Shown: in pieces, positions 3,600 through 35,285 of the stretch
Layout of the letters: the number at the start of each line of letters is the position of its first letter
Position numbering within the stretch: the stretch's first letter is position 1
Assembly (NCBI GenBank): GCA_973895155.1
Contig: OZ316894.1
Coordinates: 23,868,709-23,932,708, forward strand
Length of the DNA stretch: 64,000 nucleotides
Source: Marsupella aquatica
Taxonomy: Eukaryota > Plantae > Marchantiophyta
Direction of reading: 5' to 3'
Program-made: the position numbers and the translations under genes
Notes under the pieces: model-generated
Databases searched by the model: none
The model's input: the letters and a program-made list of their open reading frames with translations, nothing else
What the model was told of the DNA's origin: nothing

Positions 3600-6500
3600 A
3601 AGAGGATATTGAAGGAAGTCATTTGACAGCAATGATGAGCCCCCCATCTGGTACAATGTCAATAACTCTGTATCCCCACCAGCAGATTGGTCTTGCTTGG
3701 ATGGTGGATAGGGAGTCAAGGAAGAGCTCTCCACTTGGAGGAATCTTGGCAGATGACCAGGTAATTATTAAATCTATTTTGTTTGGATTGGAAACTCTAC
3801 GTGCACCCTTTGTCCGTCGCTTTCAATGTTTACAAGTGGGGTCTTGGTAGTGGGGTATTGGGGTATCAGTAGTGGGGTATTGGGGTAACTATGTGCATGG
3901 TCTTTTTGTTCCTTGTAAGCACAGAGTATGTTGAGTGTTTGTTTTGTTGATTTTTTGCAGGGAATGGGGAAGACACTCCATGTGATTGCCCTCATGATGA
4001 CCAACCGGCCTCAAAATTGCAGGCCAACTCTCGTTGTTTGCCCATCCAGTGCGATAATTCAATGGGCCAAGGAAATCAACGATATGACCACGAAGGCCGC
4101 CAATATGATTGTTCTTGTGTACCACGGCAATAGCAGGAAGAAGGACCCAAAGTACATTGCAACATTTGGGGTTGTCGTAACAACTTATGCCATTTTGTCA
4201 GCCGAGTTGAGCGTGGTTCCCAAGAAGCGGAAGAAAGGTCACTGGTGCCTTTGACAATTAAACGGGCACTAGGTGCTTTGGAGCGGACCCGGTGGTTCAG
4301 AGTGGTCCTGGACAAGTGTCATGTCATGAAGAATAGATTGAGCCAGTACTTTAAAGCAACGTGTTGTCTCCCGACGGAGAAAAGATGGTGCCTAAGTGGC
4401 ACACCAATACCGAATGAACCTAAGGATCTCTTTCATTATTTCAGGCAAGATTTCAGGTTCCTGCAATACTGTCCTCTACGCAAGTGGGGGGATTTCAACA
4501 AAATGTTGAAGATGATGAATGGTAGCACGAGTAAATCATATCAATTCCTATCTTGACACTTGGTGGCGATTACACTCAGACAAACCAAAAGTAAGTATGT
4601 TGTAGTTGTTGACATCATTTGTCCGTTAGGTTGACTCTGTTAGCAAATGATGCACTGATGGTCTCATTGTGTTCATGTGCAGGCATTCAATCTTGAGTTG
4701 CCGGTAAAGCACTCTCAGGAGGTAATAGTGGAATGGAGGAATGCAGAGAGAGATGCTCTCAACCAACATGATCGAATCAAATTATTGGCAGATCTCCAAT
4801 CAGTCAACATGCAAAGTGCTTGTATAGAATGCAAGGTAAGTATCTTAGCTCTAAGTGCGATGGGGTATTGGGGTACGAATGGCATGCAATTTGGTTGAGC
4901 GATTGTTCCTACCTGCATGGTGTTTGTAATGTTGACATTGGACATTTGTTTGTGCAGTCAAATTATGTTGGAGGTCCAATACATATTTCTCGCTATGGCC
5001 ACTTTTATTGTGGGTCTTGCGCGCTTCGAGGGCAGAAGGAAATCTTCACTTGCAAGTTCCCCAATTAATTGTAGGAGAAAGGTGGGCGCTGCAAAACTTT
5101 ACAGGAACGTAGACTTGTCAAGCAAGGAGGGTGATGGTGACGTCCTAGATGGATTGAAGTTTATTCAAACCCTTCCAACGACAACCTCTTCTGCCAAATT
5201 TGATGCAATCATGACATACTTGAAGGGTATTCCAAAAGATACTACAAAGCCACTCACCAAGGAACAATGTCATCCAAGAGAGAAGGCTCTTCTATTTTCG
5301 CAATGGACAAAATGTCTGGACTTGCTTGAGCCGCACCTCACAAAGGCTGGCCTTCGGTTCACAAGGATTGATGGGTCAATGGCCCCAAAAAAGAGAGACA
5401 AGGTGCTTCACATGTTCAACAGGACCTCTTAGGTGAGTCAAATTTGTCCATTTTCAGATAGCTAATTCATGTATACTTTTACATTATAATTTTAATGACC
5501 AATGTTTTCTATGGGCTGTATAGGTGAGCATCATTCTGCTTTCCTTGATGGCAACATCTACAGGTCTCAACATAACTTGCACAAATCATGTAGTTCTAGT
5601 AGACGGGTGGTGGAATCCCTGTGTGGAAGACCAGGCTGTGGACCGGGCACCCACCGTATTGGGTAGACAAAACCAGTCACTGTTGCACGGTTTATTGCTA
5701 GGGATTCCCCCTGGCCCCCCAGCATTATTAATAATGGGCTGGACGTGCGAACGAATGAAGGGTGCAAAAAATCTGATTTGAGATTATTTTTTATAATTGG
5801 CTTAGAAATATCAAGGGATGGTTTTATTCAAATAAACCTTTCTAACTAATATAGGCTTATATAAATGTCGCCCAAGTTAATATGCTTCAAGAGGTGATGT
5901 AATATGGATGTGACACGCGTCACAATAGGATTGGTCCTTGTGGCCACCCTTTATTGGAACATGTGTATATGACATATAATTATGCTTGCAACATCTATGA
6001 TTCAGAGTAGTTTAGGACTTTGGAGCTTTGAACCCTAACTACCCTGCCCTGTGGTTCAAAAATGCCCCAAAGTTGAAGTTTGGGGTTAAAGGGTCACGAA
6101 CACAAAAATGTATGTACCCAAAACCCTTCCAAAACACTCCCGTCAATTTTAGAACCGTTTGCACATGATGAATTTATAACTTTTCAAGGCTTATATAAAT
6201 GGTGTAAAATGTGAAATTATAATATCTCAAAGGGGCAGATTTATTCTGCAAAATTAAGTTTTTAAGAATAACAAGAGAAGTTTTTATAGGCTTCCAAAAA
6301 TAATAAGGGGTACTAGGGAAGGGGGTGTACGCACGTATACCTCTTTAGTTTACAAAGGCTGGGGCCCGGGGGGATTCCATTGAGGTGAAGATATTGAAGC
6401 TATAGGTAATTCCCTGTAACTATTACATCGAGTGTGCATTGTTTGTATATGGCTTTTATAATTAACCTGCTAGTTTTTGACTGCATTTCATGTGGATTGT

Positions 6501-6848: not shown

Positions 6849-7025
6849 CTACGGGTATACTTTATAACGGGATTATGCATTTACGCGTATAAGCGTTATG
6901 GGTTACGGGTTTACGCGTTTACGCCGATACGGGATTACGGGTTACGCCTTACGCATTTAAGGAAAGTTCACGTTACGGAGCTACGGCTAACTTCGCAACG
7001 GGACTTAGCAACGGAACGGGGACTT
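6849..7025 (+). repeat. Array of TTACG/TACGG short motifs (left)
   Basis: ttacgcg, ttacggg, ttacgcc, ttacgca and ttacgga recur, densest at 6881-6980 with ~7-8 bp spacing. Confidence 0.8.
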
Positions 7026-7126
7026 CATGCCTTGATAGGAACCAAGCACAGAGTTCAGGCGCTCACTCTTGTCTCTTCACCACCCCTATTCACTTGCTCT
7101 TTCCCTTCGAAAGTAACCTTCGCAGC

Positions 7127-8413
7127 ATGCAAATTATCGTTGCAGCTATGGCGAACCTGGGTGCTGAGGAACAGTATCAAATTGAAGCTCCAACAGTCTC
7201 AAAAGTAGTGGCAGCTCGTATACCACGAGCGCCTGATAGTCTTTCTAATTTACAAGACTCTTTACAGCACTTAGGATTGGAACGCTTACTCAAGATTCCC
7301 TGGAATGTCGAGCTCGACTCATACTTACAGGATTTTGTAAAGGGGACTATCATTCCGATTGAATTCAGGCGAACGATTCGAGCTCGCCCCAGCCTGTGGA
7401 TTGTTGAGCAAATTGCTTATGCCTTTGGATGCCCGTCAGAAGGAGAGGCGTTATATTCCAAGAAGCAGGACTTATCTACTCCATACTTTTCAGGAACTCG
7501 AAATCTCAAAAATGGCTGGAACTTGTCCGAGTGTACTTATCCCGAATTGAGAGTGCTCATGGAATTTCTGGTACCCATTCTTCATCCGAAAAAGCCAACC
7601 CTCTGTCCTGTGGCCTTGGCTAGCACTATTGTAGCTGCTCACAGTGGAGCTATAAAAGTAAATTGGGCCCTACTTCTGTTTAATGTAATGAAGGATCAAG
7701 TAAGGAGCTTGGAATCGGGGAGGACCACTTGCTTGCAGAATTATCTCTCTCAGCTCTATTATGCCCATGACTGTTTACATCTTGAGGAAGAGACAGAGAG
7801 GGGGTTACTCCTAATTGACCTGGGTATTGAAGAAGAAATTCCTATGGACGACATTGTACATGTCACCCCTTTGAATTCGAATGATCAGAACGTTGAGGAG
7901 AATGCTGATGTTCCTATGGAGGATGCTTCAATAGAAGTTCCTACACATTCTCCTATGCATAACAGGGAAGTTGTTTGTCATCCAATAAGTAATGAGAATT
8001 CCCCCAGCCGGACTACGGATGCAGATCCACTAGAAGCTAAAGAAGTAAGGAGCATTCATCAACAAGACGATGTTGCTACACCAACTACTGCTGTCATCCT
8101 AAGGACCAGCTCGTCCACTCCTTCAAAAGCAAAGTCGAATCAGTAGCTTATTGATAAGTTGACATCTCTTCTAAGTTGCAGTGATGATGGACTATATGAT
8201 GTTGTTAGTAATTTGAGAATGGAGGCTGTTAGTTTGGGATCACCATTTCATGATCAGCTAAGCCCTGTCAGAATGACCTCTCCCCCAAGAGAACCAACAC
8301 CAATGGAGTTTGTGATCTGTACTCCTGTCACTATACAGCCCCCTCCCCTAGAAACAAGTGAACCTGTTCCAGTGACAGAAAGTATCAGCTGTGTAGCCAT
8401 TGTGGATGACTTG
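7127..8413 (+). pseudogene. 5' half of an interrupted ~810-aa ORF with a transposon-associated (PMD/Transposase_32-like) N-terminal domain
   Basis: ORFs 7094..8146 and 8159.. are in the same frame, separated by one TAG. Motifs LQHLGLERLLKIPW, AFGCPSEG, KNGW..SEC, ILHPKKP, KVNWA. Cut at the ACTTG target site by the gypsy insertion. Confidence 0.7.
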
Positions 8414-8540
8414 TGTAAACGATAAAAATTACACCGGCAATATTATAGTTTTTTTTAGGGTTTAGAAGTGTCAACTAGAGGTCAACCAAGAGTATTTAGG
8501 AAGTAGTAAGCAAGGACCAGCGGTTATTCATTTTGTTGCG

Positions 8541-9145
8541 ATGACAGAAAGGCTAGAAGTAGGGGAGGCGACCATCATCTCGATTAACGGTCGTGGAGGA
8601 GTCAAGTTCTGCTATGAAGGCTGCGATGGCCTACTAGCAAATGGTAGAGTATGTGCCTTAGGCACAAGAGCTCGACAGAAAAGGCAAGGGGGGGCGAATA
8701 TAGAAACCCCCGTTAGCAGGAATCGGTTAGCTCATGAGTGTAAGTCGCTAGGCAAAGGAGTGCCTATGTTCATGTTCACTATTCGGATCAAAGAAGGAAG
8801 CTGTCGTGTATGGGATGCGGCGGGGCAACAATTGTTCGGAATGAAGGGCGAAGAGTTCCGCCAACGATTCACCACCGGCGAGGCCATTGAAGAACTCTGT
8901 AGAAAGGTCATGCGGAAGAAATGGAATCTGCTGCTAAGATGGGAGAACAGCACGATCAGCGAATTACGTGGCGATTAATCACCGCCGAACAAGTAATCAT
9001 GGCCGGCGAACCGAGCAACCCCAAGGAAGATGACAGAAGTCAGGAGGTCGAGGCACATATGGCAAGATTAACAATCAGGAGTCCGGAAGCTTCCGGATCA
9101 GGCGCAACCGAAGGGAATCGAGGAGGCCGTTGCACAGTTCAGTAA
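8541..9145 (+). CDS. LTR-encoded RPA70 C-terminal (DBD-C)-like zinc/OB-fold protein; one frameshift in this copy (consensus 201 aa)
   Basis: ATIISI..FCYEGC-x9-C...HEC...FMFTIRIKEGSCRVWDAAGQQLFGMKGEEF...KKWNLLLR...RITWRLITAEQV parallels the RPA1 DBD-C pattern (ATI..I..F.Y.AC..C..C..C..Y.L.....D......F...A..LLG..A.E). A 1-nt deletion near 8950 relative to the 3' LTR breaks this copy. Confidence 0.7.
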
Positions 9146-9470
9146 CCAGGAAGACAGAACTTCTTGACATAGTAATCAGCAGTTCTTGGCTTCCACTCAT
9201 CGTTCTGGTAGGCATTAGTTAGCGTTCTTGATGAATGAGCGAAGGAGATCAAAGAGGAGGCGCGAGTCGTCCAACTGTAATCGGCGCACCCCAAGAAGTA
9301 GTAGAGGCCTCAGGCAAAGACGGACGCGAGGCATAGGTATTTAGAGGATGTGGAGCGCTAGGCGCTCTGTCACTTTTTGCTAGAAGTCTGGGGCAAGGTA
9401 GGGCTCCGCTCACCTTAGGAATGCCAGCAATTTTGTAATAGTGTCCCTACTCAGTTGAGTAGTCTTTGAG

Positions 9471-9477
9471 TATAAAG
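9471..9477 (+). promoter_or_regulatory. Candidate LTR TATA box, followed by a (GA)n tract at 9544-9564
   Basis: TATAAAG present in both LTRs, at a position plausible for the U3/R boundary. TSS not known. Confidence 0.5.
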
Positions 9478-10284
9478 AGAGAGTTTGGAATGAATGCAAC
9501 AGAGTGAAGTCCGCACTTGAGCAGTGAATGAGAACGTCGAATCAGAGAGAGAGAGAGAGAGAGAAGGAATTTGCCTTATGCAGCAAGTCGTTACTCGTTA
9601 ATCGCAACGATGAATGAATATTGTCTCATTGCGAACCAGAACCTTACGGGCCAGCCCCTCAAGGTATAGGTTGAACAGACAGCTAGTGAGAAGCGGTGTC
9701 TGGTTGGAGATAGTGTGTTTTGAAGGCGATACACTGGTCGTCATACACCTCCATCATATAAGGGTAAATGTGATACTGGGGTACTTGCTTAGGGTAACCC
9801 TGTCACAGTCACCCACACAATCCGGAAATCAATTGCCAGGCAGGCTGATTCAAAGGACAGCCGGACTTAATCAGGTCACGGCTACTAAAAACCATGAACA
9901 TAGACAGTAGTGACGACAAGTCTTGCTCCTTGATTACCTTAAGATCACTGGAACTGTGGATCTATTCTGTCAGCACCCATCTTATTTCCCGTCAGTCACT
10001 ATACGAGAACATTCTGATTTGCTTGATCACTTACCGCGAGTGGTGTGGGTTCATTGAGATTGTGTATAGAGAGGGGTTAGTGTTGGCCGAGGCTGAAGTA
10101 CCTAAGAAGTGGAAGACGGAACTCGACATTCAAGAGCACTTGGTCGGATTCACTTACGGGGACTGTGTCGAGATAGAAGGAGTTCCGCCTCTTGGAGGTC
10201 GGTTAATCATTTAAACGAGATTACTGAGGAGAAGGTAGTTAAACGGCCATTAATCGCAAGGTTGAAGTTGGCATTTAACATTTT

Positions 10285-10301
10285 TGGCGACCATACTGGG
10301 G
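10285..10301 (+). promoter_or_regulatory. Primer-binding site, tRNA-Arg(UCG)-type
   Basis: TGGCGACCATACTGGG after a 4-nt spacer following the LTR; complementary to a tRNA 3' end of the form ...UGGUCGCCA. Anticodon assignment is from memory of tRNA-Arg sequences. Confidence 0.8.
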
Positions 10302-11203
10302 AACGCCTCGTTGAGGGTTCCGAAAGAGGAGCAACTGCTACGACCAGCAGTCCGAACCAAGAGAGAAACGCGCAGATCCAAAAAGGCGAACGGGTGACAT
10401 GAACTCGCCAAAGGAGTTCTGGACGATGTTCTATTTTGAGAAGGAGGCCGAAGCAGCAATCATAGCAACACTGAACAAGAAAGAGCACTCGATACTAGCC
10501 AGCGGGAGAAGTAGGGCACGAGAAGGCGATGTTATGATAATTGCTTACACCACGCCCACACACACAGAGTTGGTACTTCGAGAAGTGCATGGAGGAACCT
10601 AGAACGTGAGGAGGCGAGCAATTCATTTGCAATCCTCTGTTCGGAGCAGCGTTTACAGCAACGACCATGCCACCAAGTGATCGATTACCTCAAGGCTACA
10701 CGCAGTACCGCCTACCCAAGAGAAAGGAGGACCTTAGAAAACTCTTAGAATGGTGTCATTGGAATCGAAATGAGTACCCGGTTGCGATAGCATTGCAGAT
10801 AGGCAGAATCGCTAGGAAATTAAGTTCTAAACTAGAGGAAACCGTAGGAGCTTGCCCAAGATGTATGATGTGGAGTCAACATGACAGTTTTGAGTTTTCT
10901 ATGTTAAACCAGTTATTAACGATGTGCTTTAACGAGGAACTCATGGCTCCAGAAGCCTGCACTCCTAGTTTAAGCAAATAGGAGTCATTTCGTAGAGGGC
11001 ATAGCCGCAGTTGAGCAAAGGAGAGAGAGGAACTGATTAACATAAGTTATAGCATTAGTCAAGTAAAGGAGACAGTAGAACGTCTCCGTTTTTGTGAAAA
11101 GTAACAAGTAATAAGATCTTGACATCACCCTTGTAAAGAAAGACCTGATCGTTGAGTATATTGCTTGAAGGCAGAGAAAAGGCTTTGCTAACCCAGAAGA
11201 TAA

Positions 11204-14200
11204 ATGGGCAAGACGCCCATCAATCCCAACGAAGGGGAAATGGCAGAGAAGTTCGAACCTTTCCAAGAAAGCAGACTCAGACTTGAGGTCGAAGAACGAA
11301 TCGAGACTTCAAGGGCTCAAGATAAGGTCGAAGAACCCCTGGAAGAAGCCATGGAACGACTTAAAACCCACCAAGGAGCTGGCATTAGTTCGAGATTGGC
11401 TCCTACCAGAAGGGTTAAAATACCCATGTTCAAGGGAGCACCTGATGAAGATGTCGATACCCACTTAGCACGTTTCGAAGAAATGCTCAGAGCTAACCAC
11501 GAACAGAACGACACAGCCCGATTAGAGTTGTTTCCCAGCTCACTGGACAAGGAGGCTTTTGTATGGTACACTCAATACCCAGCTGACCATTTCAAAACTT
11601 GGCCTGAGTTTTCAAAAGAATTCTTAGATCATTACAGAAGGGCTAAGGAAGAATCTGATTTGTATAGCATTCTACAAAACATGACTCAGAAGAAAGGAGA
11701 ACCAGTACAGAACTATATATTGGACGATTAAAGGTAACATTGAGGTGATTAACTAACAAACCGTCCGACGGGCAACGAATTAGCTGGATGAGAAAGGCTG
11801 TGAAGGGAAGTCTAGTCACAGTGGTAGAACAAAATCCCACTTCTAATGCTGACGAATACGAGAAAAGATTAATACGGCTAGAAGGCATTACTCAAATGCT
11901 TAACCAGGAAAAGAACGAGAGCAGTAAGGATGAAGAGAGGGTTAACCGGAAAACAGAACCTTCTAAGGTAGAAGTCAAGGAAAACCGAGAGCTAGGCAAG
12001 CTTAGTACTCGTAAATTCTGTGAAATACATATGAGGCCTGGACATACTACTCAGGAATGCAACCAGAATCCTTTTAAAAAGAAACCTAGCCTAGGTGTAA
12101 ATCAGGTAGGAACAAGCAAACAAGATGGGGATAGGATGGAGAGTAGTCAGGGATATTACAATCCGGATTGTAATGCAAACCGAAGGCCCTATAAGGATGG
12201 TGGTACTAAATACCCACCGATTTGCTATTACTGTCGACTAACTGGCCACATCAGGGGGCCCGATTGTGAATTATGGATGAAGCACATGAAAGAAAAAGAA
12301 GAAATAGCGGGGAAAGCCCCAGCACCTGTGAATACTGTGCAGGTGTCAACATACGTGGTGACAAGATCTCAAGGGCAGCCAGAGAACTCAACCCAAACCA
12401 ATTCCCCGGAGACGGAGGGGGGATTCGATTGGAGCCAAATGGATGCAACCACCCGAGAAATGGCGGATGAAATTCGCCACAAACAGCGGAATGAGACTTT
12501 GCCACGACCTGAACGATTAATGCGTTCAGAACCTTACGCAGAGACAGATACGGAAATTCTAGAGGAGGGAGTGACGATGGGGGGATTCGATCAAGAAATG
12601 GGACAACTTCCACGAGATGAAGAACCAGCGAATAACCCTGCCGAAGCGAACCAGCGAATAGTGGATAAGCTAGTCCAACTCATCGCGAAGACCAGAGTCG
12701 ACATCACTATCGAGGAACTGTTCCAGTTAGCACCACAGTGCAAGGAAGCAGTAATGAGACGGTTGGGGGGCAGAATAAGTCCTACCACATTACCCGGAGT
12801 ACCACTGTACCAAGCTGGGAAGATTCCCCTAATCGACAAAGGAGCCGTAGTACAGATCAGCGTAAGGGGCATCAAACTAAAGAACGTATTGTTGGATGGA
12901 GGGTCAGCCGTAAACCTCATGAGTGAGCAGACCTATAGACTGCTAGGCAGAGTCAAACTCTTACCAGCCCCTTTTAATTTAATAATGGCCGATCAAAGCA
13001 GCTGTCACCCACTGGGTTATGTGCCAGACTTACCAATGCTGATTTTAGGCATCAAGTACAATTTAGGAGTGGTAGTTTTGAGAGAAGCATATTCCACCCG
13101 AGGACAACCCATGTTGTTAGGACGACCTTGGCTAAGACAGGCCAAAGTAAAACAACACTGGGGGGAAGAGAAGGATTATATAAAAATAGAACACGGAGGA
13201 GAGACTTTCAAGATCAGAACCAAGGCTATCAAGGACGGTGTACCACCTATGGCCAGAGTCTGTACCTTGAACTGGGCAGAGGGGTTGAATGAGGATGAAG
13301 AAGAGACCTATTTAAAATGCCGTCCAGACTTAGTCCCAATTTCAGATATGGAAATAGTCAAGCTCGACGAGATGCAAGGAATGACCAAAGAAAAAATGGA
13401 TCATGATCTACGAAACGATCTGTTTAAACACATAGACCCGCAAGGCATTCAGGAGTGCTCATTAAAGGAGGAAGAAGCACAGACCACCTTGCAGGATCTA
13501 GCAGAGAAGGTGGTGGGATGGAGTGCCACCGAGGAAGAGCACATTCAGAAGGTCGATTTGAGTGACACTGAACGACCACGAGAAGTAAAGATAGGGAAAC
13601 ACCTTTCCCCCGAGCTCAAAGAGGAACTTGTTACCCTACTCGCCGAATTCCGAGATGTTTTTGCCTGGGATTACACGGAGTTAAAGGGAGTTCCAGAGTC
13701 AATTGGCGTACATCGAATCCGACTCGTACCAGGATCAGTACCGGTGCAGACACAACGATATAGGATGAACCCCGACTATGCGGAAAAGGTAAAAGAAGAA
13801 ATCCAAAGGCTCCTTGATGCCAAATTCATTGAACCTGTTAAGCGTTATATGTGGCTATCCCCGATAGCCGTAGTACCTAAGAAAAATGGGAAGTTAAGAG
13901 TCTGCATTGATTTCAGAAAATTAAACGCAGCGACCATAAAAGACCCTTTTCCGGTACCCTTTCTAGAAGCAGTTCTGGATGTGGTAGCAGGAAAGTCAGC
14001 TTATTCATTTTTAGATGGGTACAACGGGTATAGTCAGGTCCGGTTAGCAATAGAAGCAAGGGAGCTGACCACTTTCATTACGGAATGGGGCGCTTTCCAG
14101 TGTCTCGTATTACCCTTTGGATTATGCAATGGGCCTAGTACATTCCAGCGATTAATGATGATGTTATTTCATGAGTATTTGAATCAGTTTATGCAAATCT

Positions 14201-17200
14201 TCCTAGATGACTTCACCATATACGGAGAGGAAGAGCAACATATAGGTCATCTCAGATTATGCCTCTTAAGATGTAGGGAAGGGGGAGTCAGCCTGAACCC
14301 TGATAAGTGCACCTTCTTTGTACCATCGGGCAAGATATTAGGACACAGTTTGTAAACAGGGCTTGTTAGTACGTAGACCCAGATAAGATAAAAATCATTA
14401 AAGAGATGCCAGTCCCCAATAGTGCAACTCAAGTCAGAAGGTTCCTGGGAAGTGGAGGTTTCTATCGTCGTTACATCAAGAGTTACTCCCAAATCAGTGC
14501 CCCGTTGGCACGATTAACGGGTAACCATCAAATGTTCACTTGGGACGACGACTGTCAGAAAGCGTTTGAAGAAATCAAGGACCGGTTGTGCCATGCACCC
14601 ATACTCAAGGAGCCAGATTGGAAGAGGGAGTTCCATCTCCATACAGATGCTTCTCTGGTGGCGGTGGGGGCAGTGTTAGCACAGAAGGGAGAACAAGGTA
14701 TCGATTTACCAGTATACTATGCCAGTAGACTGTTAAACGTGCATGAAAGGAACTACACCACGACTGAGAGGGAAGCATTAGCCATGATATTTGCAGTAAA
14801 GAAATTTAGGCATTATTTACTTGGGAATCGATTCATATTCTATGTAGATCATAATGCCTTGGTCAACTTAGTAAACAAACCACAGCTGTCGGGCCGAATT
14901 GCAAGATGGATTTTGTTATTAGCTGAGTTTGATTACACCATCATTTATAAACCCGGGAAAACCCATGTCATACCCGATTATTTGAGTAGACTCGAATCAG
15001 GAGAGACAGGCAAGGAAGAAGACGATCAATTACCGGATATGGAGCTATTTCAAGACGCCAAGGAAAGGCATCCTGTAAATCTAGTGACCTTGGATGACGA
15101 ACCAGCATTAGAAAGGTATTTATGCACAGCAGTATTCCCCGAGGGGTTGTCCAGTAAGGAAAGGAAGGTCTACGCCTATAAGGCAAGGCCCTACACCTTG
15201 ATCAACCACGTGCTTTATTACCAGGGGCCCGATGACATACTACGTAGAGTAGTTCCGGAGGAAGAACGGCCAGAAGCCTTAATCGCGGCACATGAAGGAC
15301 TAGGAGGGGGACATTTCGGCACCGAGATCACCCTGAGGAAGATTCTTTAGCAAGGACGTTGGTGGGCAACTGTCCATAAAGACACTCGGGAGTTTGTAAA
15401 AACTTGCAACCTGTGTCAGCGTACAGGACCTATAAAGGAAAACATGGAGTTCAGGCCTATAATCGCCCCTTATATTTTTCAGAAATGGGGAGTAGATTTC
15501 ATAGGACCCATCACTCCATCTTCCAGATATAGTCAGAACCAGTATATTTTAGCAGCAACAGAATATACCACAAAATGGGTGGAAGCAGTCGCAACTCGGG
15601 AGAACACTGCCCGAGTAACAGCCAAGTTCTTGTACCAGAACATCATCACGAGATACGGATTACCAGGTGAGCTAGTGAGCGATCAAGGTTCACATTTTCT
15701 GAACAAGGTTATCCAGGAACTGACGGATAATTACCATATAAGCCATCGGTTTTCGACTCCCTATTACCCTCAGTGTAACGGGCAAGCGGAGTCAACAAAC
15801 AAAGTCTTACTCAACGTTTTACGGAAAGTGGTTAACGAACAGCAAAATGATTGGGACGTTCAGCTACCGGCGGCAGTATGGGCATTCAGCACGGCATATA
15901 AGGTAACCACGGGCCACACCCCTTTTCAATTACTGTTTGGAGTTGAGGCCCGTATGCCGACAGACTACGAATTACCTAGTTTGCAAATTGCAGCGGGATA
16001 CGACATAAATCAAAACCCGTGTTTAACTAGATGGTTAAAAGCACTATTGGAGGTTACCGGAACCCGGAGAAGGGCCGAAGAGCGATTAGAGTATGTACAA
16101 GGACAACGCAAGCAACGAATAGACGATCAACGGGAGGTAACCACGTTCACGGAAGGGGAATTAGTACTGTGGTGCCGAAAGCGGGCACGAATAAAAAAAG
16201 GAAAGTTGAGACTTAAATGGGAAGGACCCTTTACCGTCCTCAAGGCGTGGGGAAACGGAACCTTTGAAATTACCAGCCAGGATGGGAGCGAGCAACAGCG
16301 GGTGAACGGGAATAAGATGAAGTCGTACCACATAAGGAACGACGTGTACTTACGGGAAGTAGAGGATACGGGTAACGACTACCCAGGGGAAAGCGAAGCC
16401 GGCAACGACTCCGATACGGTACCGGTGCTCAACGAGGACGACGATAGCTATCAACTGCCGACAGCACCACCTAACGAGAATCAAGCGGATGGAGAAGGGT
16501 ACGAGCTACCCACTAGAATGGTAGCCTGTATCGGCGTGACCCCCGATCAAGCATCTACGGAAGCCACCGGAGGGGCACTCACCGCCAAGAACAAGGAACG
16601 ACCCTTAGCACACGCAAAGAAGCTAGTCGCGACCACCACACGTGACACACTACGACGAGAAGAAAGCACCAATGAACAAGGACGAGAACTAATGATCAAG
16701 GGGTACCCGTTAGAGGATTACGTGAATGGAACCATTCCATCAAATGAACCAACGGAATCAGGTCAAATCAAGTCAGTGGTTCTAGCGGAGGAGGACCTAT
16801 CTGAAATCTTTCAGATCCACGATTGGAAGCACAAATTACCCAAAGGCCAGGAAGAGAGGAGGAGAAGGTTTCCTTATAGAGTAGTAATCGTAGGATGTAC
16901 ACACGGACCCTTTTCCACATGGATTGCAGATCGGATTTTGATAGGACCCAACTCGATACCCTGTATTGAGGACTACTCCACGGGAAAATTACATGTTATA
17001 CTAGAAGTTCAGGATACACTAGAATCCAAAGGGCGAGCACCATCATCCGCAAAAGAACTGTTAAACCAAAAACCCTATTTCCGATTGGCAAGGAGATTAC
17101 GAGAGAACCCCGAGTGGAGTGGCTATCAACGCGAGGTGAAATTTGAATGGTCGAGGGTCGGTAATAGGTATTACACATTACCGGTGGGCATGAAGACTTT

Positions 17201-19597
17201 GAAGCTGAAACGATCAAACGAGTTTGAGGACGATAAACCGAGGAAGCGCGTTACTATCAGCGAACTACTCAAAACCCCGGTGATGGAGGAGACACCAGCC
17301 CCCACGCACACAGAGGGAGAAGGGCCGACAACAGCAGAGGGCATGGAGCTGGAAGTTTCCGAGTCAGCGGAAAGAGAAAGGAGCAACCCCGAAGATGATC
17401 AAGAGATCGTGAGTCAAGGACCTTCAGCGGCTGACCATCTCTCGGAAACTACAGCCAAAAGGGAAGGGCAGGGGCCCGCCGAGGAGCCAACCCTAGAGAC
17501 ACAAACCGAATCAGTAATCGAGGCACCAACGGAGCAAGCGGCCGAGAAGACAGAAGAACAACAGGGAAACCAGCTGAACGAACTTCAACAAGAAGGGAGA
17601 CGGAAGCTGACCATGGCAGAATTGTTAGCCAACCCGGATCCCACGGAAGCGATCACGGCGGTCACCACAGCGATAATTGAGGAAACGACTCCTTCTAGGA
17701 CCAAGAGGAACCGCAAGGGGACAGCCAAAACGATTAAACTTGAGCCGCCAATGATGAGGGAGGTGCCATCCGTAAGGGGAAAGAGCAAAATAGTCGAATC
17801 CGAGGAGGAAGAACCGGAAGAATCTGACAGTGAAGAAGAAGAAGAACCAGCAGAAGAAGCAAAAAGTAGGACCGGGAAGGCGACGCGCGCCGCAAAGGCG
17901 AGTCCAGGGGAAACAAGTCATGTTTTGAAATTTGAGAGAATGGGGCCACAGATATTGCAAACTATGCACGGACAAGCACACAGGAAATTTCTACAGACAC
18001 AAGGATTGGAGAAATTCGTGAAACTAAAGTGGAATCAAACCACAAAGCTACAAGCAGAGGACTACAGCGAGTTCATCACCACGTGGAAACCCACCAAAAA
18101 TCAGGGAATATGTAGGGGCCAAGTCATTAAGACGAATCCTCGGAAGCTTCAGGAGCTTTTCAAACTACCAAAGCAAGGAGCGGAGATCAAGAAACGGATG
18201 GGGAAAACTTGGCAACCTGCCACATTTCCACAACACAAGGACGTAGACAACAACAGGGGCTATCCGACCAAGCATTGCACGAATGAGAAAATCAAGGAAA
18301 GGCTCAAATTTGTAACCCATGCATTACATTGGAAGAGGCCCAGATCAGAATATCCTCGATTTATGATTAAAATTGTAGAGGAAGGAGACGGGAAGCAAAA
18401 GGATTGGTCGTCCTTTTTCCACGAAGGGTTCCATGCAGCCATCAAGCGAGCTAAACGATTAATCAGCAGTAAAAGCAACCTGCCAGTAGAGATCGAGTCG
18501 CATCTCCAAGTGCTAATCGAGAGTCAGCTTACAGGGGAAGACGGGGGAAAAACGGAATCAGCAGCTACCATTTACCAACCAACGAGGAGTGAGGGAGCCA
18601 AGAAGCAGAAGGGCACCCTGCCAGAAGAGGAAGCAGCCAACAAAGAGCAAGAGGGGGACGCATCACCAGTGCGCACCACCAGGAGGAAAGAAACCAATCC
18701 AACACCGACCAAGAAGGAGTCAGAATCAGAGGGTCAAGAACCAGCGGAGGAAGACAAAATGCGAGCAGAAACCAAGGCTTATAGGACAGCGCCCATTGAT
18801 GACGATGACCTCAGGTACGCCCTCTCAACCGTAAAAGAAGGTGATGAACAACAATTACGGGAGAAGTTGGGGATCGAAGTATTGAAAGAGAAGATCAGCA
18901 CAGTGCAAAAAGATAGCATCTTTACAGTCATGATCGGACAAATCGCCAGTCAATTAGCCATTTATCAGGGAATAACGAGTTCGCTAGTACACTTGGAGTG
19001 GAACAAGCGAGAAGAAGAAATCGCCGAGGACTTAGCCGGGAAGGAGGAGGCAGATAAATGGGCAGTGGAGGCCGAGGAGACCATCAAGGAGTTACTAAAT
19101 CGTAACAAAGAGCTAATAGCAGATAAGGATCGACTGACAACCATAGGAAGAGGCTGGAGGCATGAGGAGGCAGCCACGCAGGAATTGGCTGATTACCTAG
19201 GAATAGAAGGGTTACGTCCAGGGGGACTAACGACAAATTACCAGGAGGTTGTCACGGCCATCGGAGCAGCCATAGCCACAGTCAAAGCAGATAGCCAAAA
19301 GATCAATTTAGGGTATCGGAGAGTTGGAGAATCACAGAAGACGACTATAAGCGGAAAATTGCTGAGTTAGAAGCCACTGTGAAGCTACAGGGCACTGGAG
19401 AGGAGAGTATCACTGAACAGACAAAGGAACTCGAGCAGTTGAGGACAGAGAACGATCAGCTTTCGCAAGAACTGGAAGATAAGGAACGATCAATTTTGGA
19501 TTTAAAATCCGAAGTGAGGAAGCTGAAGGCACAGAGTAGAGTTCCGATAACTCCAACCAGGACGACCAATGTTAGCGAGGGTAGGGGAGTGAAGTAG
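11204..19597 (+). pseudogene. gag-pol polyprotein (gag, two Zn knuckles, protease, RT, RNase H, integrase) with a long fused C-terminal extension; disrupted
   Basis: Gag IPMFKG...AFVWY...TW.EF..EFL; CEIH...GH...C and CYYC..TGH....C; protease LLDGGS; RT CIDFRKLN, FLDGY.GY.Q, LPFGLCN.PSTFQR, FLDD; RH TDAS, NYTTTERE; IN HEG...GH..CNLC, WGVDFIGP, SDQGSHF, NGQAE, KLRLKWEGPF. Frameshifts near 11715, 14350 and 19320; stops near 11745, 14374 and 15348. Confidence 0.96.
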
Positions 19598-19661
19598 ACC
19601 GGTGACGACTTGTCCCCAACGTATACCAAGCATAACGGATATCGAGGACGAATCCATAGGT

Positions 19662-19674
19662 AAGCAAAGGAAAA
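19662..19674 (+). promoter_or_regulatory. Polypurine tract
   Basis: AAGCAAAGGAAAA directly before the TGT of the 3' LTR. Confidence 0.75.
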
Positions 19675-21541
19675 TGTAAACGATAAAAATTACACCGGCG
19701 ATATTATAGTTTTTTTTAGGGTTTAGAAGTGTCAACTAGAGGTCAACCAAGAGTATTTAGGAAGTAGTAAGCAAGGACCAGCGGTTATTTATTTTGTTGA
19801 GATGACAGAAAGGCTGGAAGTAGGGGAGGCGACCATCATCTCGATTAACGGTCGTGTAGGAGTCGAGTTCTGCTATGAAGGCTGCGATGGCCTACTAGCA
19901 GATGGCAGAGTATGTGCCTTAGGCACAAGAGCTCGACAGAAAAGGCAAGGGGAGGGCGAATATAGGAACCCCCGTTAGCAGGAATCGGTTAGCTCATGAG
20001 TGTAAGTCGCTAGGCGAAGGAGTGCCTATGTTCATGTTCACTATTCGGATCAAAGAAGGAAGCTGTCGTGTATGGGATGCGGCGGGGCAACAATTGTTCG
20101 GAATGAAGGGCGAAGAGTTCCGCCAACGATTCACCACCGGCGAGGCCATCGAAGAACTCTGTAGAAAGGTCATGCGGAAGAAATGGAATCTGCTGCTAAG
20201 ACGGGAGAACAGCCACGATCAGCGGATTACGTGGCGATTAATCACTGCCAAACAAGTAATCGTGGCCGGTGAACCGAGCAACCCCAAGGAAGATGACAGA
20301 AGTCAGGAGGTTGAGGCACATATGGCAAGATTAACAATCGGGAGTCCGGAAGCTTCCGGATCAGGCGCAACCGAAGGGAATCGAGGAGGCCGTTGCCCAG
20401 TTCAGTAACCAGGAAGACAAAACTTCTTGACATAGTAATTAGCAGTTCTTGGCTTCCACTCATCGTTCTGGTAGGCATTAGTTAGCGTTCTTGATGAATG
20501 AGCAAAGGAGATCAAAGAGGAGGCGCGAGTCATCCAACTGTAATCGGCACACCCCAAGAAGTAGTAGAGGCCTCAGGCAAAGACGGACGCGAGGCATAGG
20601 TATTTAGAGGATGTGGAGCGCTAGGCGCTCTGTCACTTTTTGCTAGAAGTCTGGGGCAAGGTAGGGCTCCGCTCACCTTTGGAATGCCAGCAATTTTGTA
20701 ATAGTGTCCCTACTCAGTTGAGTAGTCTTTGAGTATAAAGAGAGAGTTTGGAATGAATGCAACAGAGTGAAGTCCGCACTTGAGTAGTGAATGAGAACGT
20801 CGAATCAGAGAGAGAGAGAGAGAGAAGGAATTTGCCTTATGCAGCAAGTCGTTACTCGTTAATCACAACGATGAATGAATATCGTCTCATTGCGAACCAG
20901 AACCTTACGGGCCAGCCCCTCAAGGTATAGGTTGAACAGACAGCTAGTGAGAAGCGGTGTCTGGTTGGAGATAGTGTGTTTTGAAGGCGATACACTGGTC
21001 GTCATACACCTCCATCATATAAGGGTAAATGTGATACTGGGGTACTTGCTTAGGGTAACCCTGTCACAGTCACCCACACAATCCGAAAATCAATTGCCAG
21101 GCAGGCTGATTCAAAGGACAGCCGGACTTAATCAGGTCACGGCTACTAAAAACCATGAACATAGACAGCAGTGACGACAAGTCTTGCTCCTTGATTACCT
21201 TAAGATCATTGGAACTGTGGATCTGTTCTGTCGGCACCCATCTTATTTCCCGTCAGTCACTATACGAGAACATTCCGATTTGCTTGATCACTTACCGCGA
21301 GTGGTGTGGGTTCATTGAGATTGTGTATAGAGAGGGGTTAGTGTTGGCCGAGGCTGAAGTACCTAAGAAGTGGAAGACGGAACTCGACATTCAAGAGCAC
21401 TTGGTCGGATTCACTTACGGGGACTGTGTCGAGATAGAAGGAGTGCCGCCTCTCGGAGGTCGGTTAATCGTTTAAACGAGATTACTGAGGAGAAGGTAGT
21501 TAAACGGCCATTAATCGCAAGGTCAAAGTTGGCGTTTAACA
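19675..21541 (+). repeat. 3' LTR
   Basis: Direct repeat of 8414-10280, followed by TSD ACTTG. Confidence 0.97.
19802..20408 (+). CDS. Second copy of the LTR-encoded RPA70C-like ORF (frameshift in the G-run near 19950, C-terminal part intact)
   Basis: Same ATG context as 8541. GGGGAGGG (8 nt) here versus GGGGGGG (7 nt) in the 5' LTR. ORF 20022..20408 carries the uninterrupted C-terminus. Confidence 0.7.
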
Positions 21542-21546
21542 ACTTG

Positions 21547-22711
21547 CTAGAAATACTTCAATATGAACCCCGGACAGATAGCATCTGTGGTCAGCAACTT
21601 GATCCAACAATGTCCAACTGCTAGTCCCACTCCTAGCCCAGGTTCGCAACATTACAGCCCTGATTCCAACTACGAACCCACCGAAGGACCCATCTACAAT
21701 CGGTCACAATATGACCACCCTTACGTCAGAGAGGATCTACCTGAAGACTCTGATCCACCCTCAGATGGTGAAACTTATAGATCTTATGATAATTCTCTTG
21801 AGTCATCCCCAAGGCAGGGATTTGAAGATGTTGATACTGCCTTAAGATCCAATCCAAACTTAGTAGCAGTTGTCACCTCATCTACTCAGACACCTCGGAA
21901 TGCCACCATCGAGAGTAGATACCCGAGACATCCAGAGTCCCAAGTGCACAGATATGTGGAGACCTGTAAAATAATGCAGGCCAACAGACCACCGGTTGGA
22001 GAGTTTTGGAGATACTACTATCTCAAGAAGACAGAGGCCAGTTATATCTTTGACCTCAGGTGTTTTGGAACTTCCAGAGTGGAGATGGCACAATTCGACG
22101 AGTTCTGGACTGACTCTCTCTACTTCCGACCTATTCTTGCTGTGATGCTACTTCAAGGAGATGTGGAAGTGGAGGATTCAGATTTAGTTTTGGCATACTT
22201 TGGGAACTTGGTAGCTTATGCCCTAGATTTTGTGGTTTCTTTTCTCATGCTGAGTAAGAAATCTACTTCTCCCCAGAATGCTTACCTTCCTCGAGAACCC
22301 AAGGTTACCCTTGTTTCAACCAGCTCATTTACTAAGAAACAGAGGATCTGGAACAATGTCACCTCTCAAACTCTGACCAACTTCAACCGGTATTTCAGAG
22401 ATGTCAAATGGAGGCTTCACCCTTTCTATTCCAGGATGCTGAACTCTGATGACTTCCTATATCATTATCCCCAAGTATATGCTGCTACTTACAATAATTA
22501 TGACGTGATTGGGATATATAGAGAAGCTCTTCGAATAGACATATGTTATCTAAGGAGAAGAATGCCCCTGATGTATCCTGAGAGGCAATTGAGATGCCTA
22601 CCTTACTCCAGAGGATCCCCATGCCAGGCTGAGCTGATGGAAGTTACTCAAGCTCGGACTGTTACCCTCGTGGAGCTACTCGAACCAAAAGACATCCGAC
22701 AACAAGCTTGA
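21547..22711 (+). pseudogene. 3' half of the ORF interrupted by the gypsy insertion; contains a 382-aa ORF of unknown function
   Basis: Removing the element and one TSD joins VAIVDDL to LEIL; a 1-nt shift then enters ORF 21563..22711, which has a disordered start and an aromatic-rich, globular-looking C-terminal part. Confidence 0.65.
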
Positions 22712-24240: not shown

Positions 24241-25661
24241 TTGTGGGACCCTTCAATGTATGAGAATTTGATGATGGATGTTGCATTCACTCTCTGCATT
24301 TTAGAAATCCATTTTCCACCAAGCTTCTTTGATGTCATGACCCATTTAATGATTCACCTAGTGGAGGAATTAGACTTGTGTGGCCCAGTTACAGGCAGAT
24401 GGATGTACCCAATAGAGAGGAACCTGAAGGTATTGAAGGGTTATGTACGAAACAAGGCACGCCCTGAAGGCTATGTATTAGATGAGTCTTTGGGATTCCT
24501 TTCTGAATACATGATTGATGCTAAGGGAGAGGGAAAATGAACCTGGGAGTTGGAGGAGGATGTAACTGGCGTTGCAGGCATTGTCTTGGAAGGGGCTACA
24601 AAGGAGATAACTTTGAATTGGTCTGAAATGATGGCCATGCATCATTATATATTGGAGAATGAAGAGATAGTGGCTCCATGGTACAGGTATGTAAACCCTG
24701 TACCATATGGATCATAATTATGTTGCCCCATTGTGTTTGTATATTCATGGTGGATTGTGCACTAATGTCTTCAGTGTTGTTGTTGCCGTGTAGGATATAT
24801 GATGCTACCAATGAGACCGTTACCAAACAAAGAGTGGATTTCCGAAAGGAATGGATGAGGAAGCCTGCCAATCAAAGAAAACCAGTGGAATTTCCCCTTG
24901 ACTGCCAAGAACTGCCACCTTTCAGGGAATTGTTCAAACATTAGTCAATACCCATACTTTTTAGACAGAGTCTGAGCAATCATTACTATCTGCATACTCC
25001 ACACCACCTAGTTTGAAGGCACGACTGTATAGGGCATGCAGAGCCTATGGGTATCACTGGAGGACTATTCCATTCTTGGGGTGTTTGAGTGATTGTGATT
25101 CTGGTGCATTCAACACTTTTGATTATGGGATGGCTTTGACATTCACCTGAGAAGCGAGTGGACAGGTCTGGCGCAACTAGAGAAGAATCGATATAGTATG
25201 TAGGGGCCTTGACAGATATCTTGGTACTGAATTACGACAGCTTGAGGAAAGAGGTGATTCTTTTCAAAGGGAAATGGGCAGATCCATCATGGACTCCTAA
25301 ATCCTCTGCCAGTATGAGGTATTATGAGTCTGGTCTTTGGCAGGTGAATTTCCACAGAGAACTAGGTGTGTCCAAGAAAATGGATTACGTTTTCCCAAAG
25401 CAAGTGGAGCAGGTTTTCTTCCACCCGAATGAGAAGGGGATAGCATGGAGAACAATTCTCCACAAAGAATCTAGGTCCACAAGGGTGTTAGGTGATTACA
25501 CAGATGTTGATTTCCATGCTACAATGGAAAACAATGCCAAATTACACATTGAATTGGCTAAAGCCTGTAGGACTAGAGCAAATCCAGGACCAAGTACTGG
25601 TCCCAACGAGGCAGAGATGCAGAGGGATCTACAAGAAAGGGTAGGCCTAAGCAGTGAATAG
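24241..25661 (+). pseudogene. CACTA/En-Spm transposase (TnpD/TNP2) C-terminal fragment, 5'-truncated
   Basis: TLCILEIHFPPSFFDVMTHLMIHLVEELDLCGPV..RWMYPIER.LKVLKGYVRNKARPEG (DUF4218-type motif) and GALTDILVLNY...VILFKGKW...YVFPKQVEQVFF...W..ILHKESR (DUF4216-type motif); stops and frameshifts present. Confidence 0.93.
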
Positions 25662-33595: not shown

Positions 33596-33999
33596 CTTAC
33601 AGTACTTGATAGTCGCTTGCAATATAATACTTCCAGTGTGACACAAATCCAACAAGTGAGGACTGGTCGATCGCCAAATGGATCTGCTGTCACTGACACA
33701 AACCCTGGCGGAGAAAGGTTAATAGCTAGTCCCTTGCCAAAAACGAAGCACAAACTTACAAGGGATCCGCTGTCAAGAAAAGACACAAATCCCGCAAGGA
33801 AGGGCTGTTTGCCCCTTGCAAGCTCGAAGGATCCGCTGTCGAAAATGGACACAAATCCTGCAAGAAAGGATAATAGCTAGTCCTTTGCCAAAAGGGTCCG
33901 TTGTCACACTCAGATACAGGGAAGTGACGATTTGTTCCTTGCAACGTGGTGCTGCTGTTGCACAAAATCGAGCAAAGGGCGTCAGGTACATACTGTCCT

Positions 34000-34560
34000 T
34001 AGTTGAAGCCCGACCACAGCTAGCATCTATAAGTCCTCATGGAGATGAATTCATTAGTTGAAGCCCGACCACAACATCGATAAGTACTCATGGAGATGAA
34101 TTCCTTAGTGGAGGCCCGACCATAACGTAGATAGGGCCTCATGTACATACATTCTTTAGTGGAGGCCCGACCATAACGTAGATAGGGCCTCATGTACATA
34201 CATTCTTTAGTGGAGGCCCGACCATAACGTAGATAGGGCCTCATGTACATACATTCTTTAGTGGAGGCCCGACCATAACGTAGATAGGGCCTCATGTACA
34301 TACATTCTTTAGTGGAGGCCCGACCATAACGTAGATAGGGCCTCATGTACATACATTCTTTAGTGGAGGCCCGACCATAACGTAGATAGGGCCTCATGTA
34401 CATACATTCTTCAGTGGAAGCCCGACCATAACGTAGATAGGGCCTCATGTACATACATTCTTCAGTGGAAGCCCGACCATAACGTAGATAGGGCCTCATG
34501 TACATACATTCTTCAGTGGAAGCCCGACCATAACGTAGATAGGGCTCATGTACATACATT
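34000..34560. repeat. 51-bp minisatellite: 9 near-identical and 2 degenerate units
   Basis: TAGTGGAGGCCCGACCATAACGTAGATAGGGCCTCATGTACATACATTCTT repeated head-to-tail from 34106 at 51-bp spacing, with no spacers. Confidence 0.97.
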
Positions 34561-35285
34561 CATTATTCTTTATATACAGTTTACTGCCAGGGTTTTTACT
34601 ATGCTTGAAAACTCATGGTTCCCTTTCAATGATACGCGTGCTTGCAAATTGCTCATACGTTTTTCATGAGTTGGCTTGTACATGCAAATTGCTCATCTGT
34701 ATACGTTTTTCATGAGTTCATTGTACATAATGATCCAATGATTCGGGCCAATGATTACTCTTACACTCAACTTATCCGTAAAAGTGGTGCCTCGGTCAGT
34801 GCAGGTTGACCAAAATTTCTGTGACACATTTTGACACTCCTAGCCTAGCTACTATTCGTAAATGCACAGAGCAGTTTGAACTCTGTTAACTGAGATACAT
34901 TCTTTAGTGGAAGCCCGACCATAACATAGATAGGACTAGTGTACATACATTCATTATTCTTTATATAAAGTTTATTGCCAGGGTTTTCCCAAGCTTGAAA
35001 ACTAAGAGCCCGTTCCTGGACTCTGCCTTTCAAGCATGGTTTCCCTTTCAATGATTCGGCGTACTTGCAAATTGCTCATCTTAATACGTTCTTCATGAGT
35101 TGGCTTGTATACAATGATCCAATGATTCGGGCCAATGATTACTCTAACTCTAAACGTACCTATTCGAAAAAGTGGTGCTTCAGTCAGTGTGGGTTTGGAC
35201 AAAATTTCTGTTACACATTTGGAGACTGCTACTATCGATCCGTAAACGCACATAGCAGTTTGAGCTCCGATAACTGAGATATATA
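34514..35285. repeat. Diverged ~390-bp tandem duplication, each copy starting with one 51-bp unit
   Basis: Blocks cattcattattctttatata, tgatccaatgattcgggccaatgattactct and aaaatttctgt.acacatttt each occur twice. Confidence 0.85.

Follow-up and report, generated by a model that had tools for sequence, protein, structure and literature searches.

In a stretch of 64,000 nucleotides from the liverwort Marsupella aquatica (contig OZ316894.1; hereafter the window), we found a complete Ty3/gypsy element whose LTRs carry an ORF that is best read, from its retention and its predicted fold, as a selected, stand-alone RPA70C-like Zn/OB-fold gene and not as a canonical RPA1. LTRs of plants are regarded as regulatory repeats that do not code for protein; here the LTR would hold a gene under selection. 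In the full-text literature, of which few subscription papers were covered, we found no LTR retrotransposon described as carrying a gene for an RPA-like or OB-fold protein.

The element extends over 13.1 kb (8414-21541, plus strand), with LTRs, target site duplication, primer binding site and polypurine tract all in place (Table 1). Between the two LTRs, 41 of 1865 aligned bases are different (2.2%, K2P 0.022) and four columns contain gaps; we take the primer binding site to be tRNA-Arg-like. Pfam identified gag, RT, RNase H and integrase in gypsy order, and neither a chromodomain nor an additional RNase H (aRH) was matched in the 16 frames scanned. The gag has two CCHC knuckles. The window RT is 56-61% identical to the closest RTs from Riccia fluitans, R. 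sorocarpa and Adiantum, and 43% identical to those of seed-plant aRH elements. A quick RT tree (87 of 121 rows), which included no lineage references, places the element among those of seed-free plants with no well-supported named sister. An RPA-like domain was found in none of 120 RT-bearing relatives. The post-integrase extension combines acidic tracts with a globular part (~18012-18521) and ends in a coiled coil, and two scanned pieces of it matched no Pfam family. The insertion site of the element lies within ORFs of a different, older one (6893-8413 and 21547-22711), and the ORF of the 5' flank aligns weakly with the globular part (87 columns, pairwise E 0.03).

Table 1. Features of the element and its LTRs, numbered from the first letter of the window.
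Feature	Position	Strand	Remarks
Target site duplication	8409..8413; partner 21542-21546	.	5 bp, identical
5' LTR	8414..10280	+	1867 nt, TG...CA
T8-AG run, candidate splice acceptor	8449..8463 (T8-AG 8449-8458)	+	82 nt before ATG; putative function
RPA70C-like Zn/OB-fold ORF, 5' LTR copy	8541..9145	+	frame break near 8950; first 137 codons in family frame
Candidate TATA box TATAAA	9471..9477	+	followed by GA repeat ~9545-9565; TATAAAGAG also in diverged contig end
LTR ORF B, 98 aa	9614..9910 (copy 20875-21174)	+	open in both LTRs, no family found
LTR ORF C, 106 aa	9894..10214 (copy 21155-21475)	+	open in both LTRs, no family found
Primer binding site	10285..10302	+	starts TGG
Leader ORFs between PBS and gag	10399-10602 (67 aa); 10667-10981 (104 aa)	+	no family found
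gag-PR-RT-RH-INT	11204..16350	+	in-frame stops in window copy
Post-integrase extension, ~1000 aa	16351..19597	+	in frame with integrase; coiled-coil tail 19295-19597
Polypurine tract	19658..19674	+	adjoins 3' LTR
3' LTR	19675..21541	+	TG...CA
RPA70C-like ORF, 3' LTR copy	19802..20408	+	frame break near 19952

In each LTR the ORF begins 127 nt from the LTR start, with ATGs at 8541 and 19802, and there is no other ATG between the LTR start (8414) and 8541. Each copy is broken once. The 5' copy has one single-base indel near 8950, its first frame being open from 8541 to 8978. The 3' copy has a single-base indel near 19952, where the frame is left after ~50 codons; its C-terminal part is open from 19923 to 20408 and includes the last strand and the helix. 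The stop at 9143-9145 (20406-20408 in the 3' copy) gives 201 codons by arithmetic. The initial annotation had described an ORF starting 127 nt inside each LTR, upstream of the TATA at 9471, with one frameshift per copy at different positions and an intact frame of 201 aa; the coordinates and both indels agree with this description, and the frame length follows from the shared stop. Upstream of the ORF, which begins at its own ATG, the N, A and B domains of RPA1 are absent.

Parts of the LTR occur in five public runs, which come from three studies (share of words 0.15-0.48), and four of them were compared. According to the indel rows listed, contigs of runs X1, X3 and X5 cross the 3'-LTR break site without a gap, and at the 5'-LTR break site contigs of X1 and X4 show the state of the 3' LTR. 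With neither site broken in the public contigs, the two breaks probably reflect decay of the window copy. Moreover, X1 and X4 each contain one diverged contig over 8597-8998, with 67 differences and one gap (~83% alike). Joints extend that of X1 into 9080-9148 and 9314, and the TATA region and U5 blocks are represented by further diverged contigs. A sister subfamily thus keeps the same LTR layout, in which the ORF core is the longest listed LTR block above 80% identity.

For dN/dS, one collapsed contig was compared with the decayed window copy; 58 of the 67 differences were listed, and the 52 before the break were used. These fall on codon positions 1/2/3 as 15/7/30 (third-position null mean 17.8, P ~1e-4), with 21 silent and 23 changed codons (P 0.004) and no stop. 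From this one collapsed contig and its 52 differences, dN/dS of the ORF is ~0.20. The ligands C28, C38, H65 and C67 are unchanged among the listed differences. On this comparison, the ORF of the sister subfamily is under purifying selection, and this together with 63 aligned homologues indicates that the ORF is more than a chance open frame.

The homologues come from a phmmer search against 1.84 billion representatives, which gave 79 hits. The 63 that were aligned show 24-52% identity; the other 16 were dropped (14 WD40 repeat proteins matched over a 24-residue stretch, one repeat protein and one SprB protein). A profile search returned 29 proteins, namely 26 hypothetical proteins of Riccia sorocarpa and three unnamed ones. 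The putative zinc ligands are arranged as C-x9-C-x26-H-x-C around a 26-residue Arg-rich spacer. All four (C28, C38, H65, C67) are present in 43 of the 56 homologues spanning them, and the third site is a His in 61 of 62 rows. Further conservation is seen at Y25-x-G-C28, L32-x-D-G-x2-C38-x-L-G, R45/R48/R60/R62, H65-x-C67 and F79 and, in the second half, at V90-W, G95-x2-L-x-G and W128. The domain is basic by composition (24 K+R vs 15 D+E), with Arg45/48/60/62 conserved. The RPA1 DBD-C layout claimed in the initial annotation is therefore only partly upheld: the ORF does carry the C-x9-C...HxC cysteine/histidine cluster and the RVWDAAGQ... segment, but the ligands are C-C-H-C and do not follow the four-cysteine spacing, the zinc site of RPA1 DBD-C being made of four cysteines.

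The Riccia homologues are multi-copy. Some are short and stand alone, others are fused behind coiled-coil and RING-like parts; many of the models have a Met at the start of the domain, and no Pfam OB domain was found upstream of the fold in the named long homologues. The fused models of Riccia sorocarpa may have arisen where the gene caller merged genes of mobile elements. In six of them (P0028, P0083, P0085, P0088, P0090, P0092), an unnamed domain, a coiled coil and a RING-like finger accompany the OB fold. Homology of this upstream domain to the post-integrase ORF of the window was considered and is unsupported, as 13 of 150 shuffles reach the local score. Other searches returned no relatives: a word-index protein search with the single window protein gave no match, PDB sequence searches (single and profile) gave nothing under E 0.3, the ESM Atlas gave no usable match, and no relative of the RPA-like protein was found in metagenome and viral contigs. 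A motif-pattern search gave no viral and two metagenome hits, both of them chance matches in phage-like contigs.

At the level of Pfam, the window protein has no match with E up to 1. Across the alignment, the family with the most matches is Rep_fac-A_C (PF08646), which recognizes 4 of 64 members, at best with E 0.024 and 14.9 bits against a cut-off of 28.5; this weak match covers the strand-helix segment. The Rep_fac-A_C search, one of the checks proposed in the initial annotation, did not detect the window protein. Since Pfam Rep_fac-A_C misses the window protein, the link to RPA needs structure, and the LTR gene was missed by profile searches and identified by structure only. A single-sequence model of the protein is poor (pLDDT 50). 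With a 64-row alignment and the natural 137-residue piece, AlphaFold2 gave pLDDT 92.3 and pTM 0.81, and the resulting prediction is an OB fold with an inserted zinc module, a helical cap and the topology of DBD-C. Foldseek ranked RPA70 chains first (probability 1.00, TM 0.55), with an E that is not significant (best 0.023).

The model was also compared by VIA-align with 48,161 representative PDB chains, a tool according to which Z values of 7-8 are common. The top match was human RPA70C (8rk2_A; Z 9.5, rmsd 3.8, 113 of 137 aligned, residues 458-579). It was followed by Ustilago RPA70 (4gnx_C; Z 9.3, rmsd 2.9, 110 aligned) and Tetrahymena Teb1 OB-C (3u50; Z 8.8), and then by yeast and archaeal RPA, CTC1, POT1, TEBP-alpha and Cdc13. 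Ranks 1-15 are all OB folds of RPA1, Teb1, CTC1, POT1, TEBP or Cdc13, and simple SSB folds score ~4. Identity is 10-14% to the solved RPA70C chains and 17% to Teb1 OB-C. No match under E 0.85 was obtained from a viral structure library. Three weak-to-moderate lines, the Rep_fac-A_C matches among them, agree on DBD-C for the predicted domain. In RPA70, the trimerization helix lies C-terminal of the last strand. A C-terminal amphipathic segment stands in the corresponding order in 11 of the 16 rows that are long enough (judged by eye), after the last strand and a linker of ~10 to 60 residues; the structure model ends before it, at residue 137. This segment, which the initial annotation had overlooked, may match the trimerization helix of RPA70. 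Overall, the RPA70-C-like OB fold suggested in the initial annotation is borne out by a predicted model with RPA70 DBD-C as best match (Z 9.5), and AlphaFold and Foldseek, run as it had proposed, gave pLDDT 92.3 and RPA70 chains in the first ranks, though with E 0.023. As for the proposed analysis of ORF retention and dN/dS, the ORF is kept in the LTR of the sister subfamily at dN/dS 0.20. Where that annotation had foreseen three contrary outcomes, we found an OB fold in the prediction, an ORF retained at low dN/dS, and its presence in sister LTRs.

How the ORF is expressed depends on the promoter. It is called U3-located on the one ground that it lies upstream of the TATA box at 9471, a box that one diverged contig end retains as well. 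If this TATA is the promoter, the ORF would lie in U3, and RNA would contain it nowhere but at the 3' end of the genomic transcript; a transcription start near the LTR 5' end would place it in R/U5 instead. The candidate splice acceptor overlaps TAGGGTTT, which we take to be telomere/telo-box-like, and a TATA-like ATATTATA stands just upstream (8440). Through this TATA-like run, both LTRs, and solo LTRs as well, could have a promoter of their own. The motif TTTAGGGTTTAG, presumably also telomere/telo-box-like, occurs near the LTR starts (8454-8465 and 19715-19726), overlapping the candidate acceptor. A possible donor, AAG/GTAT, is seen at ~9663 and also in diverged contig ends. Rfam yielded nothing real for 8300-11300.

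Two further ORFs, B and C, which the initial annotation had also overlooked, overlap each other downstream of the TATA box. In three diverged contig ends, ORF C shows 8 silent among 20 changed codons and keeps its ATG, and in one diverged contig end 2 of 7 changed codons of ORF B are silent, all of these counts coming from 30-base pieces. They are suggestive of coding, and the LTR may be a three-gene cassette. ORFs B and C have no detectable relationship to each other, and for ORF C the ESM Atlas gave no match of at least 0.9, leads below 0.9 only. With the two leader ORFs, the number of small ORFs from the TATA box to gag rises to four, and translation of gag past them would need splicing, shunting or re-initiation.

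Proteins encoded upstream of the LTR TATA are familiar from HIV nef, MMTV sag and foamy virus bel/tas, whose RNA is spliced or internally promoted. These are, however, unrelated proteins of vertebrate retroviruses, and the expression route is only a candidate here. With RPA70 DBD-C (8rk2_A, 1l1o_C, 4gnx_C; PF08646) and Teb1 OB-C, the LTR protein shares the predicted OB barrel, zinc insert and helical cap over 108-113 aligned residues (Z 8.8-9.5), and possibly, with RPA70 DBD-C, a C-terminal helix. In contrast to these, it is a single-domain protein with its own ATG, encoded in an LTR, with C-C-H-C ligands around a long Arg-rich spacer and 10-17% identity.

The RPA homologues of plant Helitrons (PHRPA; Mothra) are likewise transposon-borne RPA-like genes far diverged from core RPA, as described in the accessible part of PMC4683698. 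In that part of the source, their carrier is a rolling-circle DNA element with an ssDNA stage, the gene is multi-exon with 472 aa, and it is known from monocots and dicots only, whereas our gene, of one exon and one domain, is carried by an LTR retroelement and has liverwort proteins as its named relatives. The same text reports repeated acquisition of RPA homologues by Helitrons, and the available portion of PMC9033089 also ties RPA to Helitrons. The ORF does not lie in a Helitron; the two LTRs that contain it belong to an element with TSD, PBS and PPT, and it has the same place in the LTR layout of the sister subfamily. A remote Helitron origin is nevertheless conceivable. Among large non-chromovirus elements, Athila, Ogre and Retand have family-wide accessory ORFs, which in the accessible text of PMC6317226 and PMC7264820 lie in the internal region (5' of gag or from pol to the 3' LTR), whereas here 201 codons lie in the LTR. 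The accessible text of PMC6317226 covers only extra ORFs of at least 250 codons, and its table of domains with hits in at least five elements has no RPA or OB domain; PMC7264820 deals with ORFs of the internal region only. The Tat Z1/Z2 elements resemble ours in being Ty3/gypsy elements of seed-free plants, including liverworts, that lack aRH (PMC10508981, in part), and the main text of that paper does not contain the words RPA and additional ORF. The portions available of PMC12885004 and PMC11735767 treat liverwort repeat content without such detail.

In our preferred reading, whose chances we judge to be about even, the accessory protein of the LTR would bind ssDNA of the element and shield it from host nucleases, recombination and damage signalling. 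The gene would go back to an ancient capture of the RPA1 C-terminal module with later divergence inside elements. The predicted protein would act mainly in the nucleus, on cDNA ends, incomplete strands and integration gaps of the element's own DNA. DBD-C alone binds ssDNA weakly, the high-affinity domains being DBD-A and DBD-B, whose equivalents are absent from the LTR-encoded protein. We propose that the retained amphipathic helix at the C-terminus lets the protein assemble with further copies of itself or with host RPA32/RPA14; the avidity so gained would offset the weak binding by a single OB fold. Expression could occur from a subgenomic RNA spliced, in the manner of nef and sag, into the 3' LTR copy of the 8449-8458 acceptor, or alternatively be driven by a small promoter located at the 5' end of the LTR. 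RPA opposes rather than promotes annealing; for this reason, and because gag has its two CCHC knuckles, an annealing role is less likely than protection. What counts against an ssDNA helper, besides the missing DBD-A/B equivalents, is the low identity to solved RPA70C chains, the non-significant Foldseek E, a Z of 9.5 that exceeds the common 7-8 by little, and a ligand set unlike that of RPA1. The majority of LTR elements, moreover, replicate with no protein of this kind, and zinc knuckles are already present in gag. Single-stranded DNA ends at PBS and PPT on Tf1 cDNA (PMC11042837) and the shielding of ssDNA from a deaminase by RPA (PMC3174200) are described in the accessible parts of these papers.

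In the main rival reading, the same domain would instead act on the host. As a decoy, the protein would displace host RPA70 in complexes with RPA32/RPA14 or soak these subunits up, and so weaken replication-coupled transcriptional silencing or checkpoint signalling at the element. The part that is kept matches human RPA70 from residue 458-579 onward, that is, the trimerization core without N, A and B, and the amphipathic segment is conserved beyond a variable linker; moreover, Arabidopsis RPA2 is reportedly tied to transcriptional gene silencing, in work said to be that of Xia 2006 and Elmayan 2005. At 10-14% identity, however, the interface of the hetero-trimer need not survive, the helix lies outside the folded model (which ends at residue 137) behind a linker of ~10 to 60 residues, and conservation of the basic Zn loop suggests that the protein binds nucleic acid, so that we regard a decoy as doubtful, though worth keeping in view. 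It is rather unlikely, in our opinion, that the first gene of the LTR cassette is a captured RPA70 trimerization core which forms an element-specific mini-RPA with host RPA32/RPA14 and thereby both protects and de-silences the element. If true, this would be a transposon counter-defence at the ssDNA hub of replication, repair and silencing, of which we found no description.

The Arg-rich insert between the zinc ligands would also suit a regulator of the Rev/Tat type, which would bind element RNA through OB fold and loop and serve export, splicing choice or translation. OB folds bind RNA as well, U3-overlapping retroviral genes encode regulators, and the four small ORFs before gag imply regulated expression; yet at the top of the structural ranking stand only OB-C domains that bind ssDNA and have a zinc insert, and no RNA-binding OB folds, and we consider such a role unlikely. 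The OB folds of Teb1, CTC1, POT1 and TEBP-alpha at ranks 4-15, together with the TTTAGGGTTTAG motif at 8454, might hint that insertions are steered by the protein, which would bind ssDNA of the telomere-type G-strand or of forks and make contact with integrase. The window copy sits, however, in an ORF of another element and not in telomeric repeats, TTTAGGG occurs 11 times on the plus strand of the window, and RPA70C outranks or ties the telomere proteins, which makes targeting of this kind quite improbable. Lastly, both window copies are broken and plant Helitrons carry RPA homologues (PMC4683698, accessible part), as might be expected of a Helitron or host-gene fragment that is copied within the LTR without function. 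This explanation is largely refuted and seems very improbable to us: the pol of the window copy is broken too, so that decay is general, the public contigs are unbroken at both sites, dN/dS is 0.20, and the ORF is the longest LTR block above 80% identity in the sister subfamily. In addition, the Mothra Helitron RPA has 472 aa in eight exons, and such RPAs are limited to monocots and dicots in the same accessible text.

Almost all extra ORFs of plant retrotransposons stand without a function. If the protein of the LTR binds ssDNA or host RPA subunits, a plant retrotransposon would have a defined accessory factor, and mobile elements would have captured an RPA module independently once more, in addition to the Helitron cases. 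The gene would represent a retroelement accessory gene that joins transposon-borne RPA with U3-encoded genes, a combination we did not find in print; LTRs are called non-coding in the accessible part of PMC13192763. Solo LTRs would spread the gene too, and this may explain many short 'hypothetical' gene models of liverworts.

Elsewhere in the window, the fragments at 4899-5432 and 25197-25661 resemble, as we assume, the C-terminal part of an SNF2-type helicase and a CACTA-associated protein. A gene split over several frames lies at 49826-52263 and is presumably pentatricopeptide-repeat-like. At 33927-34640, there is a tandem array of 51-nt units, the minus strand of which is open as a 17-residue repeat.
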